From: a virus
Reading direction: 5' to 3' (one strand)
Virus record (IMG/VR): IMGVR_UViG_3300027759_000002
Location: 115,755 to 179,754 of that record
DNA: 64,000 nucleotides
How positions within the stretch are numbered: the first letter of the stretch is position 1; each line of letters begins with the position of its first letter. Made by a program: the position numbers and the translations under genes. Shown here piece after piece: positions 35,823-58,731 of this stretch. The notes beneath the pieces were generated by a model. It was not told the DNA's origin and made no database searches. It saw only the letters and a list, made by a program, of their open reading frames with translations.

Positions 35823-36836
35823 ATGTCCGTTTTTATTGATAGAACCTTTCTGCTAAGGGTATCCCCGAAGCTTCAAAAATTCACACAGAAAAAGGACAAC
35901 CTGTATAACTTCAGGTGTCCTCTCTGTGGCGACTCAAGTAAGAACAAAACCAAAGCCCGTGGTTATGTTTACGAAAAAAAGAACAATTACTTTTATATGT
36001 GCCACAATTGTGGTGCATCCACTTCCTTTTATAATTTCCTGGAGAAGGTTGATCCAAACCTAGTTAAAGAATATGCACTTGAGCGGTACAAAAATGGTGA
36101 ACAGGGACGTGACAATTACGTTAAACCAACTTTCGATGAATTCAAACCTGAAACCCCGAAGTTTCGTGTTAAATTCGATATTCCATCGGTCGAATCGTTA
36201 CCAGAAGAACATTTTGCGAAGGTGTATGTCAAATCCCGCAAAATACCAGAGTCGTTCCATGCACACCTATATTTTGCACAAGACTTTAAAGGCTTTGTCG
36301 ATAGCCTGCAAATAGAGAAAGATGGTCTCAAAGAAGAAGACCCTAGATTGGTAATACCATTCTATGATGAAGATAAAAATCTTGTGGCATTTCAAGGTCG
36401 TGCATTAGGTGAATCTAAACTAAGATATATCACCGTAAAGACAGACAAAGATAACCACAAGTTATTCGGGACTGACCGGATCAACACGGAAGACATGATA
36501 TATGTTGTGGAAGGTCCTATTGACTCTATGTTTCTGGAGAATGCCGTTGCAACTGCGGATTCAAATCTGATGGCTGCTTCCAAGCACTTTGACAAGTCTA
36601 AGATTGTTTTGGTGTATGATAATGAACCAAGAAACAAAGAACTACATAATCAGATGGACAAGGCTATCGAGGAACACTACAATGTGGTAATCTGGCCTGA
36701 AATGATTGAAGAAAAAGATGTAAATGATATGGTTTTGAATGGCTTCTCACCAGACGAAATTCAAGATATCATAAGTAAACATACCTTTGTAAATCTGAGA
36801 GCAAAGATGGAATTTATTAACTGGAAAAAGACTTGA
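35823..36836 (+). CDS. gp61: DNA primase (gp61)
   Basis: CPLCGDS..CHNC zinc ribbon, FQGRAL, VEGPIDS, YDNEPRN. Confidence 0.96.
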   Translation: MSVFIDRTFLLRVSPKLQKFTQKKDNLYNFRCPLCGDSSKNKTKARGYVYEKKNNYFYMCHNCGASTSFYNFLEKVDPNLVKEYALERYKNGEQGRDNYVKPTFDEFKPETPKFRVKFDIPSVESLPEEHFAKVYVKSRKIPESFHAHLYFAQDFKGFVDSLQIEKDGLKEEDPRLVIPFYDEDKNLVAFQGRALGESKLRYITVKTDKDNHKLFGTDRINTEDMIYVVEGPIDSMFLENAVATADSNLMAASKHFDKSKIVLVYDNEPRNKELHNQMDKAIEEHYNVVIWPEMIEEKDVNDMVLNGFSPDEIQDIISKHTFVNLRAKMEFINWKKT

Positions 36837-52076: not shown

Positions 52077-52134
52077 TTTCTTGATTTGATGGAGTAATTA
52101 TACCACAACCAGTGAAAATGGCAACCTGAGTACT
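52077..52134 (-). promoter_or_regulatory. Leftward early promoter cassette 1
   Basis: AGTACT-cagg-TTGCCA..TATAAT..CCATCAAATCAAGAAAG. Confidence 0.8.
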
Positions 52135-52141
52135 TTTTAAC

Positions 52142-52273
52142 TCAAGCCACCAACTGGAGTATTAACTCGGCACCTCTAGTGCAAGCACCAGCACAAGCGC
52201 TTGCCACCGAGAGCACAGCTGTGTTATAATACGCACCGACTAAAGAACCAGTCACAAAAACGAATACATTCAT
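52142..52273 (-). CDS. 43-aa hydrophobic peptide
   Basis: SD GGAG; MNVFVFVTGSLVGAYYNTAVLSVASACAGACTRGAELILQLVA. Confidence 0.5.
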   Translation of the reverse strand: MNVFVFVTGSLVGAYYNTAVLSVASACAGACTRGAELILQLVA

Positions 52274-52423
52274 ACTAACTCCAATTATGTTAACTTTTGT
52301 TTTCAATTTGCCAGTAATTTTCCAACTGGCGGCCTCTGGGATCCGATCCCTTTGCCTTACATCCGAGCGCCGGTGTTGGCACCGGCTTTTGGTGTTGCTG
52401 TGTTCCTCACAGCACCCGAATGG

Positions 52424-52753
52424 TTACGCAATTGCTTTGCGTGCCATGATGGCAGCAGCAATTGCATTGTCCTCAGCGCCGAAAACCACGCCTTTGCTTG
52501 GGCGCTTGTTGGCTTTTATTGCCTTAGCGCCTACAGCACCAACTTGCTTTGCAAGCAGTTTAGCAAGGCGTGCTTCTGCTTTCACAATAGCGATAGCACG
52601 CTTCTGCTCAGCATCGGCAATTTTAGAAGCATTAGCTGCTTCCTTTTCAGCCTTGACCTTGACGGCAAGAAAAGCAACCTCTGATTTGAAAAACTTCAAA
52701 GAAGCACGAGCAGAGGCCAATTCAGTGGCGAGGGGGGAGAGAGCTTTTGACAT
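52424..52753 (-). CDS. Ala/Lys-rich basic protein (histone H1-like composition)
   Basis: 109 aa dominated by A and K; own promoter and SD. Confidence 0.75.
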   Translation of the reverse strand: MSKALSPLATELASARASLKFFKSEVAFLAVKVKAEKEAANASKIADAEQKRAIAIVKAEARLAKLLAKQVGAVGAKAIKANKRPSKGVVFGAEDNAIAAAIMARKAIA

Positions 52754-52762
52754 TTTGTTTCC

Positions 52763-52820
52763 TTTTTGATTTGATGGATGAATTATAACCGATTTTAGCC
52801 GTTTAGGCAACCTGAGTACT
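52763..52820 (-). promoter_or_regulatory. Leftward early promoter cassette 2
   Basis: AGTACT-cagg-TTGCCT..TATAAT..CCATCAAATCAAAAAG. Confidence 0.8.
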
Positions 52821-53045
52821 TTTTTCTTCAAGCATTTCACTCAAGATATATTTTGCAATATTCATGAGCTTGCGGGACTGGTCAAGCGCTTGAGCATGGT
52901 TAAAGGACTGGAGCTCTTGAGCGTCCGACAATATGCTCATGCACACCATTTCCAGACCAGAGAACCTGGCGGTGATGCTTTGCATATACTGCTCACGGAT
53001 ATCTGCTGTGGTCATACCGTAGCACTGCTTTTCGAATTCTGTCAT
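52803..53045 (-). CDS. Hypothetical early protein
   Basis: MTEFEKQCYGM...ILSDAQE; its 3' end encodes the next promoter. Confidence 0.7.
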   Translation of the reverse strand: MTEFEKQCYGMTTADIREQYMQSITARFSGLEMVCMSILSDAQELQSFNHAQALDQSRKLMNIAKYILSEMLEEKSTQVA

Positions 53046-53055
53046 ATTTTCTCGC

Positions 53056-53121
53056 TTTCTTGATTTGATGGACAAAGTATAACCGATCCTGCTGATTTTG
53101 GCAATGGTACACTATAGTACT
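53056..53121 (-). promoter_or_regulatory. Leftward early promoter cassette 3
   Basis: AGTACT..TTGCCA..TATACT..CCATCAAATCAAGAAAG. Confidence 0.75.
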
Positions 53122-53258
53122 CCATCGGGAAAACTGAGAACCTTTGCGCTATATTGCCAACCTGTCTGGTTCCTGTATAATAGCACCTATTCGAAAGCAG
53201 ACTGGGGTGGACGCTGGGGCTGGGCGTTGAAAACGGAAGTACTCTAGCTCGGCAATGG

Positions 53259-53303
53259 AGTACTTTTTCAGTATATTGCCAAACTCTCGGTTTTATTGTA
53301 TAA
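53259..53303 (+). promoter_or_regulatory. Rightward early promoter
   Basis: AGTACT-11 nt-TTGCCA..TATAAT. Confidence 0.75.
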
Positions 53304-53331
53304 TACCCACATATTAACACAGGAGTATTAC

Positions 53332-53523
53332 ATGGGCAAAATGTCAGAAATTAGTATTCAATTACAAGAGTTGGAAGAAATGCTGTATACTTTTGGTTTA
53401 GGCCATGAAGAATTCATACAGGAATGTAAACTTTTGTGTGAGTTGGGGTTTGCTGATGAAGTAAATTGTATTATCCATGAGTTTGAAACAAAAGTATTCA
53501 ACGGCGACCTAGAGCGCTTCTGA
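53332..53523 (+). CDS. Hypothetical acidic protein
   Basis: SD AGGAG. Confidence 0.65.
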   Translation: MGKMSEISIQLQELEEMLYTFGLGHEEFIQECKLLCELGFADEVNCIIHEFETKVFNGDLERF

Positions 53524-53761
53524 GAGTAACACTTTGGTTTGCGGTAGAAAAACCATTGTAATGCTTTGAGGTGCCATCGCAGGCACAGACTAAGACTTTC
53601 TTGTTACTTCATAATGCGAAATATGGTGCGCTGGTAACACTAAAGCACACAAAATTGCACTTTTTAACACTTTTGCAGTATATTATGCGGAACATGATAA
53701 CTTTCTCAGTACACCTGGATGCAGGTTACAACGGAAGTACTCATTAACTAGTCAGGTAAAG

Positions 53762-53824
53762 TTATCCACAGCATATCCACAGCATCTGCGACTTATACAC
53801 ATTTTATACACAGACTTATCCACA
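53762..53824 (+). repeat. Array of five co-oriented DnaA boxes
   Basis: TTATCCACA 53762, ATATCCACA 53773, TTATACACA 53793, TTATACACA 53804, TTATCCACA 53816. Confidence 0.85.
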
Positions 53825-53947
53825 GCATATAATATGAATACTATAGTACTCCATGGCCATAATGTAAGACTTTTCTCTTATATTGCCATTTCATATAAAA
53901 CCTGTATAATGTAACACATGACAACAAACAATGATGAAAGAACGAAA

Positions 53948-54325
53948 ATGAGTACTTTTGATAACAATTTTGACTTGGGTATTTTTGCAGATACAATTTA
54001 CAATGCATCGGAAAGTATTATTGCTGAAACTGAAAATGTAGAAGAAGGTTTTACTGGTGATATGTTAGATGTAATACATTTTTCTGACATACGTGATTCT
54101 GCTGAGGAATTACAACTTTTGATTGAACGTTATGAGTCAATCGAAAGTATTAAGAACGAAAGTATTAATTTGTACCAGAATGTTAAGTATATCTTAGAAC
54201 ATTGTGAAAATGAAATCTTTAGTACTACTGACACAGAGATAATGAATTCTTTTGATAACATTAGAACTTATGTTGACGTTATACGTGATGCAGTTAATAC
54301 TTTAGTATCAGAGCAGTCGGCTTGA
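53948..54325 (+). CDS. Hypothetical acidic protein
   Basis: Downstream of promoter TTGCCA(53883)/TATAAT(53906). Confidence 0.7.
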   Translation: MSTFDNNFDLGIFADTIYNASESIIAETENVEEGFTGDMLDVIHFSDIRDSAEELQLLIERYESIESIKNESINLYQNVKYILEHCENEIFSTTDTEIMNSFDNIRTYVDVIRDAVNTLVSEQSA

Positions 54326-54393
54326 GAACTATAGTACTCAGGTTGACAAGTGCAGGATTCTATGATATAATGGTATTTTTAAACGGTTAGGAA

Positions 54394-54573
54394 ATGACAA
54401 TGACAAAAAACGAAACTATAGCACTCATTATTGAGTCTATTGTAAGTACTGGGTATTCAGATGCGGATCAATTTATAGAATATATTACTATGATTCTGCC
54501 GCAAATGAGTACGGAAGACTTACAAGAAGAATTAGAATTGTTGGAAGATAATACTATTGGTCTCAGTCAGTAA
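54394..54573 (+). CDS. Hypothetical small protein
   Basis: SD AGGA after promoter TTGACA(54343). Confidence 0.55.
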   Translation: MTMTKNETIALIIESIVSTGYSDADQFIEYITMILPQMSTEDLQEELELLEDNTIGLSQ

Positions 54574-54587
54574 AAGGTACTAAGAAA

Positions 54588-54821
54588 ATGAAATTAATTG
54601 AATACTTTGGTTTCTATCGTTCAGTCGGTAGACGTTCCGCATTACACGGCGTGCCTATCGGTGAACTGGATAATGTAAGACTTTTGTTTGCAAAGGCCGG
54701 TAAGAAGGTAAAGTTTCGTTTTCGGGGTCCACGTGCTCATAACACTTTCCGTTCACCGAACACCAAACAATCGACCTGTTTAAAGCAGGATGCTACTACT
54801 TTTGCAGTATACCCACGTTAG
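54588..54821 (+). CDS. Hypothetical basic protein
   Basis: KFRFRGPR motif. Confidence 0.65.
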   Translation: MKLIEYFGFYRSVGRRSALHGVPIGELDNVRLLFAKAGKKVKFRFRGPRAHNTFRSPNTKQSTCLKQDATTFAVYPR

Positions 54822-54930
54822 TCAGGTAATACTGTAGTACTCCAGTCAGGTAATGGAGTACTATGGTATTAGGTTGCCAAGTCAGGTAAAATCTGGTATA
54901 ATTGTGTTTTAAATCAGTGAGGTAAAATAA

Positions 54931-55185
54931 ATGCGTGATATGATAGAAGAAATGGTGGACGAATTGCTCGATATGGAAGGAACTGTAGAAGTTGCAGGTT
55001 CTGTATTTTCTCGCTCGGCCATTTTGCGTGAGTTAGACCCTACTGCTTATCGTATGCTTTGCAATGATACTGCTGATGCACTTATCGAAGATTTGAAAAG
55101 TGAGTTAGATTATCTCGGCGAAGATGGCGATTTTGATGAGGTAGAAGATTTGAAGGATCGTATTAATCAATTGGAGAATATTTAA
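54931..55185 (+). CDS. Hypothetical acidic protein
   Basis: SD GAGG; LRELDPTAYR. Confidence 0.7.
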   Translation: MRDMIEEMVDELLDMEGTVEVAGSVFSRSAILRELDPTAYRMLCNDTADALIEDLKSELDYLGEDGDFDEVEDLKDRINQLENI

Positions 55186-55343
55186 TGGGTAATAATGTAT
55201 TGTTTTTTGAGACCCGTTCACGGGCAATGGTTTTAGTTGCTGAATTGGTTAATTTGGTACAAAACACTGAATTGTCACAAGCAGATATGGATGAGATATT
55301 CATGGATGCTGTTGAGATGATTCACGAATCACAACCAAACTAA
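55185..55343 (+). CDS. Hypothetical small protein
   Basis: Coupled start, 52 aa. Confidence 0.5.
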   Translation: MGNNVLFFETRSRAMVLVAELVNLVQNTELSQADMDEIFMDAVEMIHESQPN

Positions 55344-55352
55344 GGTAAAATT

Positions 55353-55574
55353 ATGAATGTGCAGTTAGTTCACTTGGCGATTGACCAAATCCGTGACGAT
55401 ATGGATTCTGGTGATTATACAGCAGTTGAAGAATTGCTGAAAAAACTCAGTAATGACGTATTGTATTCCTTCTTAGGTGAAGATAGACAAGAAATTGCGG
55501 ATTCTTATGAATCTCAATATGATGGCCAGCCTGATGAAGCACAGGAATGGCATGATTTTGACCCTGATTGTTAA
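55353..55574 (+). CDS. Hypothetical protein
   Basis: YDGQPDEAQEWHDFDPDC terminus. Confidence 0.7.
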   Translation: MNVQLVHLAIDQIRDDMDSGDYTAVEELLKKLSNDVLYSFLGEDRQEIADSYESQYDGQPDEAQEWHDFDPDC

Positions 55575-55585
55575 TAGGAGATAGT

Positions 55586-55807
55586 ATGAAGGTAAAATTG
55601 CCGTTTGATTGTATGATTCTCGACAAGGAATCTGTCGAGGTAAAAAACCGGTTCTCTGGTGAAGGTGTAATGTTGACGCCCGAAGCGGTAGCAGTATATG
55701 ACACCATAATGGGTTGTGAGATGACAGGCGACTATAAAATGGTTCGCAAAGGACTGGATTGGTTTCGCAAACATTATCCAGCAGAATATATGGTTCTATT
55801 AGATTAA
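55586..55807 (+). CDS. Hypothetical protein
   Basis: NRFSGE..LTPEAVAVYD.IMG.E, WFRKHYP.EYMVLLD. Confidence 0.75.
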   Translation: MKVKLPFDCMILDKESVEVKNRFSGEGVMLTPEAVAVYDTIMGCEMTGDYKMVRKGLDWFRKHYPAEYMVLLD

Positions 55808-55817
55808 GGTAAAAGTA

Positions 55818-56015
55818 ATGACTAACTCAGAATTGATTGATAGACTACAGCAGGCACAGGCGTTGCTTGCTGATGTATATCATTGGGCAGATACGCCTAT
55901 GACTAATGGTTTGCAGATTTCGCCATTAAAGACTAATGCTGAAATTGCCTCGCTGTTGAGCACGGCTGATTCCTGCATTTGGGCTGCATTGGATGAATTG
56001 GATTATAATTCATGA
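55818..56015 (+). CDS. Hypothetical protein
   Basis: SD AAGG. Confidence 0.6.
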   Translation: MTNSELIDRLQQAQALLADVYHWADTPMTNGLQISPLKTNAEIASLLSTADSCIWAALDELDYNS

Positions 56016-56260
56016 ATAAGGTTATCAATGAACTATTCAACCGTGCAGGCGGTTGGACGGAAGTGTGTGATGTATCAGGCGAAGAAATTCTAACCTATAA
56101 CGAGCACTTGGATCCTGAGAAATTCGCTAAATTGATTGTGTTGGAGTGTATGCATGAATGCCTGCGTATGCAGTTAGGCAATCAATATACACCAGAAGAA
56201 CTGTTGTTTCAAACTAAGTATCGTAAGATTATCAAAGAACATTTTGGAGTAGAAGAATGA
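56012..56260 (+). CDS. Small paralog-family protein, copy 2
   Basis: EKFAKLIVLEC..IKEHFGVEE. Confidence 0.7.
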   Translation: MNKVINELFNRAGGWTEVCDVSGEEILTYNEHLDPEKFAKLIVLECMHECLRMQLGNQYTPEELLFQTKYRKIIKEHFGVEE

Positions 56261-56436
56261 AAGATTTAAACTGGTTGTATATGTTGGACGTATTGTCTGG
56301 CGCTAAATTCAGTAATTATGGTTTGCAGTGTTTGGCAGAATTGAATATTGGTGAAATCAAATCACGGAAAGAATATCCGTTATTGACCCAGCGCCTGTAC
56401 ACACCAACACGAATGGAAAAATTCGCAATGCAATAA
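56257..56436 (+). CDS. Hypothetical small protein
   Basis: ATGA overlap, 59 aa. Confidence 0.5.
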   Translation: MKDLNWLYMLDVLSGAKFSNYGLQCLAELNIGEIKSRKEYPLLTQRLYTPTRMEKFAMQ

Positions 56437-56523
56437 TACTTGACCTAGGAGATGGAGTACTTTAGTATTAAGGTTGCCATTACCTAGGATTCATGTATAA
56501 TGACACATTCAATAGGAGATATT

Positions 56524-57051
56524 ATGGAATTTCAAACTGGTAAACCCCCACAAACTGCCATGTATTTGGTCGACCGTGGGATGCAAGGCAAGTATTATCG
56601 TTGGTATGATGCAGAAACCGATACCTGGTCAATGTGCGGTTCTGATATGACCGAAGCATTGTCATTTGTTGGTCGTCCATCGCCTGTTGGTTTCTTCCCA
56701 TGGGTAGGTCCTATGACTGGTCCCCGATTCAACCCTGCTACAGGTGTTGCTGATCCTGAAGTTAAGACACCAAAAGTTGCCAAAGTAAAACCTGCATCAC
56801 GTAAGATGGCACGCCAACGTACAGTGACACCAACCAAACTGGTTATTTCCAAAGTTGGCAATACCACTGTTGGTTCTATTGTAAAAGGCACTAAAACAAC
56901 GCATCCTGATGGTACTGTATTCTTCCGTGCGGATCGTCAAAAATGGGTTGCTATGATGAATGGCAAACAAGAAGCAGCACGACCAACACCTGAAGCGTGT
57001 TTGTCGTTTTTGAAGAAAAAGTATAATGTGGAAGGCATTGTGTTAAAATGA
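56524..57051 (+). CDS. Hypothetical protein with a basic Pro/Thr linker
   Basis: SD AGGAG; follows the promoter at 56474. Confidence 0.7.
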   Translation: MEFQTGKPPQTAMYLVDRGMQGKYYRWYDAETDTWSMCGSDMTEALSFVGRPSPVGFFPWVGPMTGPRFNPATGVADPEVKTPKVAKVKPASRKMARQRTVTPTKLVISKVGNTTVGSIVKGTKTTHPDGTVFFRADRQKWVAMMNGKQEAARPTPEACLSFLKKKYNVEGIVLK

Positions 57052-57509
57052 TTAAGACTAAAAAAATTGCAGGTTGGGAAGATTATTCGGTCAGCACCGA
57101 TGGTCGTGTGTTTTCAAAAAAACGTGGTGAATTGGTTGAATTGACTCAAACCAAAGGCACAACTGGTTATTATAATGTTGGATTTTCTAATAAAAAGGAA
57201 AAGAAAACATTTCAAGTCCACCGATTGATTGCAATATCATTTATAACCAATCGTAAAAATTTAGAAATTGTTAATCATTTAGATGGCAACAAATTGAATA
57301 ATGATGTATCAAATTTAGAATGGACAACCCGTGGTGGCAATGGTGACCACGCCGGCAAGGTTTTAGGACCAAAGCAACGTGCTGAACGTAAAGCCAAAAA
57401 AGATAATGAAATGAAATCAAAACTTTCTATTATAGATTTTTCACACTCTGCTTGCACTGCCAATCCTGAGTTGTTTCATTCAATTTATAAAACTGTTATG
57501 GGAGTTTAA
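57048..57509 (+). mobile_element. NUMOD4-HNH homing endonuclease gene
   Basis: YSVSTDGRV, VHRLIA, VNHLDGNKLNN.VSNLEW.T..GN. Confidence 0.85.
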
Positions 57510-57510
57510 A

Positions 57511-57903
57511 ATGGGTTTAGATATGTACGCATTCCGTGTAAAAGCGGAATATGTGATTGACGATTTTAATATACGTGGTCAGGACGCTGGTCGTGAAGAT
57601 GATTTAGAAGAATTGGCCTATTGGCGTAAGCATCACGACCTCCATGGTTGGATGGAACGCCTGTATCGTTCAAAAGGCGGCGACCAAGAATCGTTTAATT
57701 GTGTGCCTGTACGATTGACAATGCAAGACCTCCAACTGTTGGAACATGATGTATTGAACGGCAGACTACCTGAAACGCAGGGGTTTTTCTTTGGCACCAA
57801 TCCGCCTGATGAATGGACAATGGAACAGGACATGAAATTCATTGTTTCTGCCAAAATGGCCATTACTCAAGGTGATGCCGTTTATTATGATTCATGGTGG
57901 TAA
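57511..57903 (+). CDS. Hypothetical phage protein
   Basis: MGLDMYA, YWRKHHDLHGWME, GFFFG, YYDSWW. Confidence 0.8.
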   Translation: MGLDMYAFRVKAEYVIDDFNIRGQDAGREDDLEELAYWRKHHDLHGWMERLYRSKGGDQESFNCVPVRLTMQDLQLLEHDVLNGRLPETQGFFFGTNPPDEWTMEQDMKFIVSAKMAITQGDAVYYDSWW

Positions 57904-58055
57904 TATTAAACTGATAATTGTACTGATATTAATTGGTTCAATTATTGGTTGTGCCCAAACTGGCCAAAATGATGATATGACCAATGCCAAAATCAAACAA
58001 ATGAGCACAATGAGAAATCCCATATGTCGTGAGGTTGGTTCGTATTTGTATTGTA

Positions 58056-58250
58056 ATGAAAGATGATATGAAAGAAATTATTAAGGCAGGCATTTGGATT
58101 TTACTTACTGTAGTGGTAATCAGTGCATATCAGGATTTGAGTGAAACAAGTGACCGCAATATTATCCGTAAAATGGTATATAAATGTGAAAAAGACTTGC
58201 CAAGAAATCAACAATGTTATATAATTGCGGTGCCCCCCAGTAAGGATTAA
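58056..58250 (+). CDS. Hypothetical membrane-anchored protein
   Basis: N-terminal TM; CE..LPRNQ.C. Confidence 0.55.
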   Translation: MKDDMKEIIKAGIWILLTVVVISAYQDLSETSDRNIIRKMVYKCEKDLPRNQQCYIIAVPPSKD

Positions 58251-58259
58251 GGATTAATT

Positions 58260-58478
58260 ATGAAAGAAGTAACTATTAAATTAGGTTGGGATACTGTTGA
58301 TAGTATCATACAAACGGAATTGCAAAGTACCTATGAGTCATTAAAACAAGATATGGTAAATCGGTCTGAAGGACGTGGTTTTGCTATATTTGATGTTGAT
58401 GAAGCAAAGGACATTGGTGAGATTGCCGAACACCTTTATTGCCTTAAAAAGGTAATGACATATTGGGGAGTTAAATGA
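58260..58478 (+). CDS. Hypothetical protein
   Basis: SD AAGGA. Confidence 0.65.
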   Translation: MKEVTIKLGWDTVDSIIQTELQSTYESLKQDMVNRSEGRGFAIFDVDEAKDIGEIAEHLYCLKKVMTYWGVK

Positions 58479-58731
58479 TATATGGATTTGGAAACATTTA
58501 CTCACCGCTGGAATGATGCCGTTGTCACATATGATGAGTACAAAAAACTGATTGCAGCGCACCAGGAATGGGTGGACGCACAGGAAAAGCAGGCAGCAAT
58601 GGTTGCTGAAGCAGAGAAACCGAAGCGTTCCAAGAAGAATACTTGACCGGACTGCTTGAGTACTAAAGTACTAGGTTGCCATTAGTACCAAAACCTGTAT
58701 AATACGTAGTATTGATTGATTAGGAGTAACG

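Follow-up and report, generated by a model that had tools for sequence, protein, structure and literature searches.

A conserved, optional array of DnaA-type boxes in an early-promoter hub of an uncultured T4-like phage

Introduction

Why would a T4-like phage keep a row of DnaA boxes next to its early promoters? T4-like phages are the textbook case of viruses that bring their own replication machinery and have little need of the host initiation system. DnaA boxes are used by lambda, P1 and many plasmids. The docking of DnaA by phages seems largely undescribed, and in our full-text literature searches no paper dealt with DnaA-box arrays of T4-like phages; the papers found that name phage "DnaA boxes" are Ori-Finder style predictions.

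Here we analyze such an array in an uncultured, freshwater, distant T4-like phage. The source is a 179,754-bp IMG/VR virus record, whose final 64 kb (64,000 nucleotides) form the window examined; coordinates are those of the window unless given as genome positions. A first-pass annotation had recognized the repeats as DnaA boxes and had suggested that they act as a decoy for host DnaA, as a DnaA-loaded origin, possibly for a carrier state, or as a cell-cycle sensor on the nearby early promoter. Our results uphold the identity of the boxes, and all three functions remain proposals, which we weigh below together with a further one.

Results

A distant T4-like phage with a probable betaproteobacterial host

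The genome has 37.3% G+C, a 127-bp end repeat and 26 tRNA genes. A gp43-type polymerase, UvsX, a gp41-type helicase and rIIA are all present, in agreement with the T4-like assignment made at first reading. The further claim that gp41, gp61 and gp43 are all encoded holds for the gp43-type and gp41-type proteins, and the primase is likely, in the form of a weak Toprim frame near 36501. Cyanomyovirus polymerases share at most 50% identity with that of the phage, which has no cultured close relative, a DNA search of cultured phages with the hub described below having returned no match. We did not find psbA, MotA or AsiA in the phage genome (MotA and AsiA sought in six frames at E ≤ 1). Without MotA and AsiA, the phage cannot use T4-style middle-promoter origins.

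The sole clue to the host that we found is a two-piece tmRNA (genome 18843-19209, outside the window; L079:844-1210), which fits the betaproteobacterial tmRNA family with 126 bits (gathering score 84) and suggests that the freshwater host is probably betaproteobacterial. BLAST of this tmRNA against 401 Burkholderiales genomes gave short tRNA-like matches only, and its type was not found in two Burkholderiales genomes. The end repeat suggests that the assembly is circular or permuted; the array would then lie at no fixed distance from an entering DNA end.

Five co-oriented boxes form a pair and a triplet

Five co-oriented 9-mers stand on the plus strand, four of them perfect matches to TTATNCACA and one with a single mismatch, placed as first described and with the same start-to-start spacings of 11, 20, 11 and 12 nt. 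Box 1 (53762-53770) is TTATCCACA, a perfect box of R1/R4 type, and is followed after 2 bp by box 2 (53773-53781), which is ATATCCACA and carries the mismatch. Box 3 (53793-53801) is TTATACACA, perfect and of R2 type, and the same perfect 9-mer, TTATACACA, recurs 2 bp further on as box 4 (53804-53812). Box 5 (53816-53824) lies another 3 bp downstream and is again a perfect TTATCCACA. The layout is therefore one pair plus one triplet, with gaps of 2, 2 and 3 bp within the groups. Between box 2 and box 3 stands a CTGCGAC spacer element (53786-53792), which is conserved almost like the boxes, is also found in array-less hubs (L064/L070) and does not match the one consensus tested, that of IHF.

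The cluster is far beyond chance. Perfect boxes number 14 genome-wide, against 12.1 expected from shuffles, so that there is no excess apart from the array, and 4 of the 14 fall inside 63 bp on one strand. Among 200 shuffles, 197 had a single box in their densest 63-bp window and the other 3 had two. With up to one mismatch allowed, the 63-bp window contains five boxes, compared with 2-3 in shuffles. Elsewhere in the genome, only one weak pair of boxes is separated by a gap of 2-3 bp.

Relatives conserve the boxes as DnaA sites

Relatives were gathered in four ways, namely by an exact 24-mer, by the two flanking proteins, by a promoter-only pattern that ignores the boxes, and by a metagenome scan using an alignment of the upstream protein. 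We collected 37 distinct versions of the gap. An array with unchanged position and orientation is present in about 28 of them. Across about 30 distinct relatives, conservation is about 98% at the eight specified positions of the box, and position 5 and the spacers vary freely. For the 18 distinct five-box arrays (90 boxes), the mean majority fraction is 0.978 at the specified positions, 0.767 at position 5 and 0.74 in spacers and flanks, boxes 1-2 being partly fixed by the regular expression that selected the arrays and boxes 3-5 being free of it.

Box 1 is the same in 18 of 18 arrays, an invariance already demanded by that expression. Box 2 is TTATCCACA or TTATACACA in some relatives (L039, L015), at a constant 11-nt spacing from box 1. 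Box 3 is TTATGCACA in most relatives, a difference confined to the free position; box 4 has A, G or C at position 5 and has decayed to TTGCCCACA in L035/L038; box 5 is nearly invariant. Over the 90 boxes, position 5 is C in 59, G in 15, A in 12 and T in 4. This usage agrees with the affinity order of DnaA for TTAT-type boxes by position 5, which is C > A or G > T (PMC5835720).

The geometry is kept as well. The spacings between boxes 1 and 2, 3 and 4, and 4 and 5 are always 11, 11 and 12 in relatives, and the spacing between boxes 2 and 3 is either 20 or 30/31, that is, one helical turn extra. Since this spacing shifts by one turn, each box stays within about 2 nt of a common helical phase. 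In 274 kb of relatives' DNA, we found no double box outside the array site.

Judged by this conservation pattern, the array is under clear purifying selection. The relatives hold the DnaA consensus without drift to another repeat, a drift that had been named beforehand as the test of the DnaA assignment. The longer, iteron-like 13-mer of this genome, TTATCCACAGCAT, is not conserved: beyond the 9-mer, only the following G is kept in relatives, and the GCAT tail is lost.

The array lies in an early-promoter hub

The gap reported as about 390 nt of non-coding DNA (53524-53917) measures 394 nt and has no ORF longer than 58 aa; relatives differ in it by indels of 10, 11 and 31 nt, which exclude a coding function. 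The promoter noted at 53883-53910 is real and conserved in relatives. This promoter, P2, lies on the plus strand and consists of TTGCCA, a 16-nt spacer and TATAAT (11 of 12 consensus matches); relatives preserve the hexamers and the spacer length and leave the spacer sequence free, which is the mark of a real sigma-70-type promoter. The array occupies about -155 to -93 from the inferred P2 start site. Two other promoters lie upstream of the array, at 53154 and 53276, and our search of 53300-54100 found no intrinsic terminator, so none stands between the upstream gene and P2.

Two features of the first description had to be toned down. The AT-rich stretch following the array is modest: by nearest-neighbour stability, 53800-53920 belongs to the least-stable 2-5% of the genome, which is no extreme, and it is largely the promoter itself. 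Transcription does diverge in the region, but about 600-700 nt upstream (53075/53154) and not at the array.

Two AGTACT-type elements frame the array. The left one (53733-53748), GGAAGTACTCATTAAC, is operator-like, invariant in the alignment of relatives and the left limit of the array indel; the other (53837-53853), AATACTATAGTACTCCA, lies between the array and P2. The motif occurs upstream of at least seven other early promoters between 52.1 and 58.7 kb. Boxes of the form GAGTACT or TAGTACTCC cluster at early promoters, with 13 of the 22 genomic GAGTACT copies within 52100-58700 (6.6 kb); example sites are 52128, 53115, 53258, 53736, 53845, 54836, 54856, 56455 and 58658. The GAGTACT boxes usually lie just upstream of a TTGCCA -35 hexamer and are probably the operator of an early regulator.

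Further repeats are found in the same region. Copies of GTCAGGTAA lie directly before box 1 (53751-53759) and around a promoter at 54874 (54821-54829, 54845-54853 and 54881-54889), and relatives have tandem caggtaaga/caggtaaca just before the array or replacing it. Tandem 10-nt CACTTT(T) repeats, TTGCACTTT and TTAACACTTT, occupy 53655-53673 on the plus strand and number 2-4 copies in relatives. Since they are swapped for GTACTTTT in some relatives, they may be variants of the AGTACT operator. Their order with respect to the other hub elements differs between clades (L068, L070, L074).

Rfam and tRNA scans of the hub returned nothing, and a structured RNA is unsupported by RNAalifold on 17 relatives over 53524-53750 (covariation term -0.02). 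Two promoter candidates were discarded: a TATACA-17-TATAAT arrangement overlapping boxes 4-5, which is deleted in several relatives and thus is not a conserved promoter, and a minus-strand candidate at 53868-53840, whose -35 is poorly conserved.

Directly upstream of the hub lies a conserved 63-aa gene (53332-53523, plus strand) with an invariant QECKLLCELGF motif. Its product is predicted to form a three-helix bundle (pLDDT 86), and we obtained no match in Pfam, PHROG or the ESM Atlas and no fold match with Foldseek against the PDB. The first gene behind P2 (53948-54325, plus strand) has no family match. It probably starts at the ATG at 53948 and not at 53918, because some relatives begin at MNTFD..., without the N-terminal extension from 53918; moreover, the ATG at 53918 is just 7 nt past the P2 -10 and lacks a ribosome-binding site.

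The array is an optional module of the hub

From the comparison of gap versions, the array is a discrete, optional and orientation-fixed module of 2-6 boxes within a conserved early-promoter hub. Box number varies among relatives, with 2, 3, 4 or 6 boxes (L022, L047/L074, L024 and L068). About eight distinct relatives have no array yet retain the rest of the hub, so that the array is dispensable. In those of the L054/L058/L065 type, the same hub has about 20 nt where the array of about 90 nt would be, and the L070 clade is array-less as well.

The distance from the array to the P2 -35 is 55-57, 66-70, 87 or 167 nt in relatives. The longest belongs to L068, in which the array lies beyond other hub elements and is joined by an extra inverted box, with the orientation of the array unchanged. 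P2 itself precedes at least five unrelated first genes (e.g., in L021, L024, L039 and L068), and two first-gene families occur both with and without the array. Therefore, the first gene varies independently of the array, which is best seen as a cis element of the hub that is not tied to a particular gene product. A P2 cassette placed before unrelated genes resembles the mobile early-promoter cassettes that have reportedly been described for T4-type phages.

The box grammar points to host DnaA

In vivo, E. coli DnaA favours paired boxes with a gap of 2 or 3 bp, which it requires for stable binding (PMC11317965). The array fits this cooperative-binding grammar, with co-oriented neighbours and gaps of 2-3 bp that are invariant in relatives. 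Our six-frame search of the phage genome found no DnaA domain IV or DnaA-like DNA-binding domain.

An IMG/VR scan for the architecture of boxes 3-5 (9-mer, 2 nt, 9-mer, 3 nt, 9-mer; 24 specified bases) gave at least 120 exact matches, and the chance expectation for 24 fixed bases is essentially zero. The matching contigs (L210-L328; at least 120, taken as listed, which could be true phages, prophage ends or host origin fragments) represent 100 distinct sequence contexts and range from 24 to 67% G+C. Among the matches listed, the same G follows each box and the 3-nt gap is mostly GAC or GAG. The occurrence of one triplet grammar in contigs of 24-67% G+C argues for a universal host factor and not for a lineage-specific phage protein. 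The contigs listed include recurrent families with near-identical flanks, for example one of about 65% G+C and several made up of 4-14 kb contigs, and some triplet loci have 10-12 boxes (L251, L318, L325).

At least 120 bacterial species, drawn from many phyla, have the 20-nt double box, which makes it useless for tracing the donor of the array. We inspected one bacterial copy (Pseudorhodoferax); it adjoins a gene for a DegP-like protease, and dnaA was not found beside it.

Considering these sequence comparisons together, we think it highly probable that the boxes are real host-DnaA sites and that DnaA docks there.

Discussion

How the phage might use docked DnaA is a separate matter. We tentatively prefer a role in transcription, in which a DnaA complex would act within the hub as a roadblock or insulator, as a modulator of P2, or as both; we put this forward as a possibility of some substance and not as the expected outcome. 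According to this model, host DnaA would bind the incoming phage DNA cooperatively and build up a short co-oriented oligomer, as is expected of a pair and a triplet with 2-3 bp gaps on one helix face. The oligomer would form an orientation-dependent roadblock or insulator against read-through from 53154 and 53276, which meets no terminator, and alternatively or additionally it would modulate P2. Early expression would then track the level of free DnaA in the host. As phage genomes multiply and the DnaA pool is shared out, the effect per copy would fade, and some titration of DnaA would be an unavoidable side effect of the array.

In the older E. coli literature, DnaA roadblocks are reported to depend on orientation. 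Throughout the 274 kb of relatives, the array is always in the same hub and always in the same orientation with respect to transcription; P2 is conserved, and the path from the upstream gene to P2 has no terminator. Furthermore, DnaA is an established transcription factor, phage lambda DNA included, according to the references given in PMC3985674.

The position of the array speaks against a role in transcription, as it would be unusual for RNA polymerase at P2 to be contacted directly from so far upstream, and the distance varies. The displaced array of L068 and the dispensability of the module weigh on the same side. This long and variable distance, together with the variable downstream gene, argues against a classical activator or repressor. 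Likewise, with at least five first genes, and two families that occur whether or not the array is there, regulation does not seem to be aimed at any one gene product. The promoter "sensor" of the first-pass annotation shares both sides of this balance: the position in the hub suits it, but the unrelated first genes, and the presence of the same genes with and without the array, do not.

Among the alternatives, one would have the array soak up host DnaA, or inactivate it as datA does, while phage genomes multiply. The benefit would be that new initiation on the host chromosome is stopped and nucleotides are spared. We regard this as unlikely, although several observations are in its favour. Multicopy DnaA boxes titrate DnaA in E. 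coli (PMC5835720), and most boxes in the array are of high-affinity types. A box number of 2-6, in a module that is optional and movable within the hub, is what one would expect if only the dose of sites counted, and the array is independent of the downstream gene. However, there are only five sites per genome, in one cluster, with no enrichment in the remaining genome (14 boxes observed, 12.1 expected), and the IHF site needed by datA was not found here, with the caveat that the consensus may differ from that of the host. The effect would also arrive late, when the host is already committed. A pure sink gives no reason for the strict co-orientation with transcription, the helical phase and the single location in the hub. 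The decoy idea is physically plausible at high copy number, but it leaves the orientation, phasing and fixed place of the array unexplained.

Another alternative is that a DnaA oligomer marks a phage origin, or helps to open it, at the adjacent promoter and low-stability DNA. Opening would be direct or would proceed via an R-loop from P2 that the oligomer stabilizes, followed by a handover to the phage machinery of gp59/gp41/gp61 type. In its general form, T4-like phages without MotA and AsiA would use DnaA as a loading mark for one origin. We consider both the origin-helper reading and this wider proposal doubtful. If the proposal were true, a DnaA pentamer would open promoter DNA or hold it open, the phage helicase loader and primase would start the first forks, and a DnaA-dependent origin would for the first time be known from a virulent phage with a complete replisome.

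Several features of the locus are in line with an origin. The CACA side of the array is where the less stable DNA is found, and in oriC the unwinding element is likewise on that side with respect to R1. Next to the array stands a conserved promoter, as in T4 oriF and oriG, and T4-type middle-promoter origins are ruled out for this phage by the absence of MotA and AsiA. T4 origins are redundant, so that an optional origin module would be no contradiction, and lambda couples DnaA, transcription and origin firing. The five co-oriented boxes, with their gaps of 2-3 bp, also resemble the DnaA-oligomerization half of E. coli oriC, whose left half is described in PMC10325909 as binding a DnaA pentamer.

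Other observations speak against an origin. The basal unwinding system requires at least three DnaA-trios that lie no more than 16 bp from a box and keep a conserved distance (PMC8287927); by the same rules, inspection by eye of 53825-53852 showed no run of at least three trios within 16 nt of box 5. The right flank of box 5 varies by 10-12 nt in length, and also in sequence, among close relatives, and a flank of variable length is a misfit with a fixed distance from box to trio. We did not find a conserved unwinding element beside the array, and in L068 the array is 167 nt from P2 with other elements between them. For IHF, no match to WATCAANNNNTTR with at most one mismatch occurs in or beside the array and none is conserved in relatives, on a consensus that may differ from that of the host. 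Finally, the GC skew, which had been proposed as a check for an origin, rises monotonically when cumulated and tracks gene orientation, and is uninformative for T4-like phages. The oriC-like origin of the first-pass annotation therefore finds no support in trio runs, a conserved unwinding element, an IHF site or a skew signal, and none of our results bears on the suggested carrier state in either direction.

Last, it is very improbable that the repeats are iterons for a phage-encoded or other host protein with the specificity of TTATNCACA: the hub is indeed rich in other repeats (AGTACT, GTCAGGTAA and CACTTT) that must serve other factors, and the conserved small gene (63 aa) always adjoins it, but the conservation footprint is that of the DnaA box position by position, free fifth base and affinity ranking included, the triplet grammar is common to unrelated viral contigs (at least 120, of 24-67% G+C), the phage encodes no DnaA-like DNA-binding domain that we could find, and the 63-aa protein is also present in array-less relatives.

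Whichever use is made of the docked protein, a conserved DnaA-box array would mean that a T4-like phage still reads or exploits the master replication regulator of its host. Since the same triplet grammar is found in at least 120 viral contigs of differing base composition, DnaA docking looks like a widespread phage strategy. Because the module is a small and discrete unit that near-identical relatives naturally have or lack, it is easily testable in E. coli. For many aquatic T4-like phages without MotA, it also offers a concrete candidate for an origin or an early timing device.

Comparison with known systems

Like T4 oriF (uvsY) and oriG, the locus is a promoter-centred non-coding element of a T4-like genome, and such elements are optional and redundant in T4. 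The T4 origins, however, combine a promoter with a downstream unwinding element, use MotA-dependent middle promoters and involve no DnaA, whereas P2 is of plain sigma-70 type. Three cultured marine cyanomyoviruses (S-BM3, S-CAM9 and S-T4) showed no TTWTCCACA cluster, so that such arrays are not a general feature of T4-like phages.

With the basal unwinding system of oriC and with P1 and plasmid iteron origins, the locus shares tandem boxes beside less stable DNA, with CACTTT repeats nearby, which are candidate iterons only. It differs from them in that a trio run, a conserved spacing to an unwinding element and an adjacent gene for a Rep-type initiator are all missing; the flanking genes encode 63 and about 125 aa without family or fold match, and no Rep initiator was found beside the array.

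About five high-affinity boxes outside the chromosomal origin are a trait in common with datA and with the DnaA-box clusters of B. subtilis. Nevertheless, datA extends over about 1 kb and depends on an IHF site, for which the phage array gave no match, and the chromosomal sinks are present in a single copy per chromosome.

Two phages offer partial parallels. In lambda, according to work cited in PMC3985674, DnaA of the host occupies sites beside a promoter on the phage DNA and influences transcription important for the phage cycle. These sites are few and weak and lie on the downstream side of the promoter, and lambda depends on host DnaB and its own initiator O. In the injection-stop (iss) region of T5-like phages, conserved pairs of DnaA boxes 3 bp apart, of consensus and near-consensus sequence, have been described with a putative function (Davison 2020, bioRxiv 10.1101/866236, citing Heusterspreute 1987). 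Both T5-like phages and the phage studied here are lytic phages with their own replication genes and have boxes in a large non-coding region that are conserved in relatives. The T5 boxes, however, belong to inverted repeats in the terminal repeat, and the role proposed for them is to stop incoming DNA at a fixed genome end, whereas the boxes of our array stand in one co-oriented row within an early-promoter hub.

Further counterparts are the double DnaA boxes of DnaA-regulated chromosomal sites (Stringer, Fitzgerald and Wade 2024, PMC11317965), together with the low-affinity arrays of E. coli oriC, in all of which co-oriented 9-mers are 2 or 3 bp apart. The double boxes, like the phage array, also lie near promoters, and the length of the gap, which is critical in the chromosomal sites, is invariant in the phage. 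Compared with these sites, the phage array stands out by its five mostly consensus boxes, its pair-plus-triplet layout and its place in a genome of virulent type, before no evident regulated gene.
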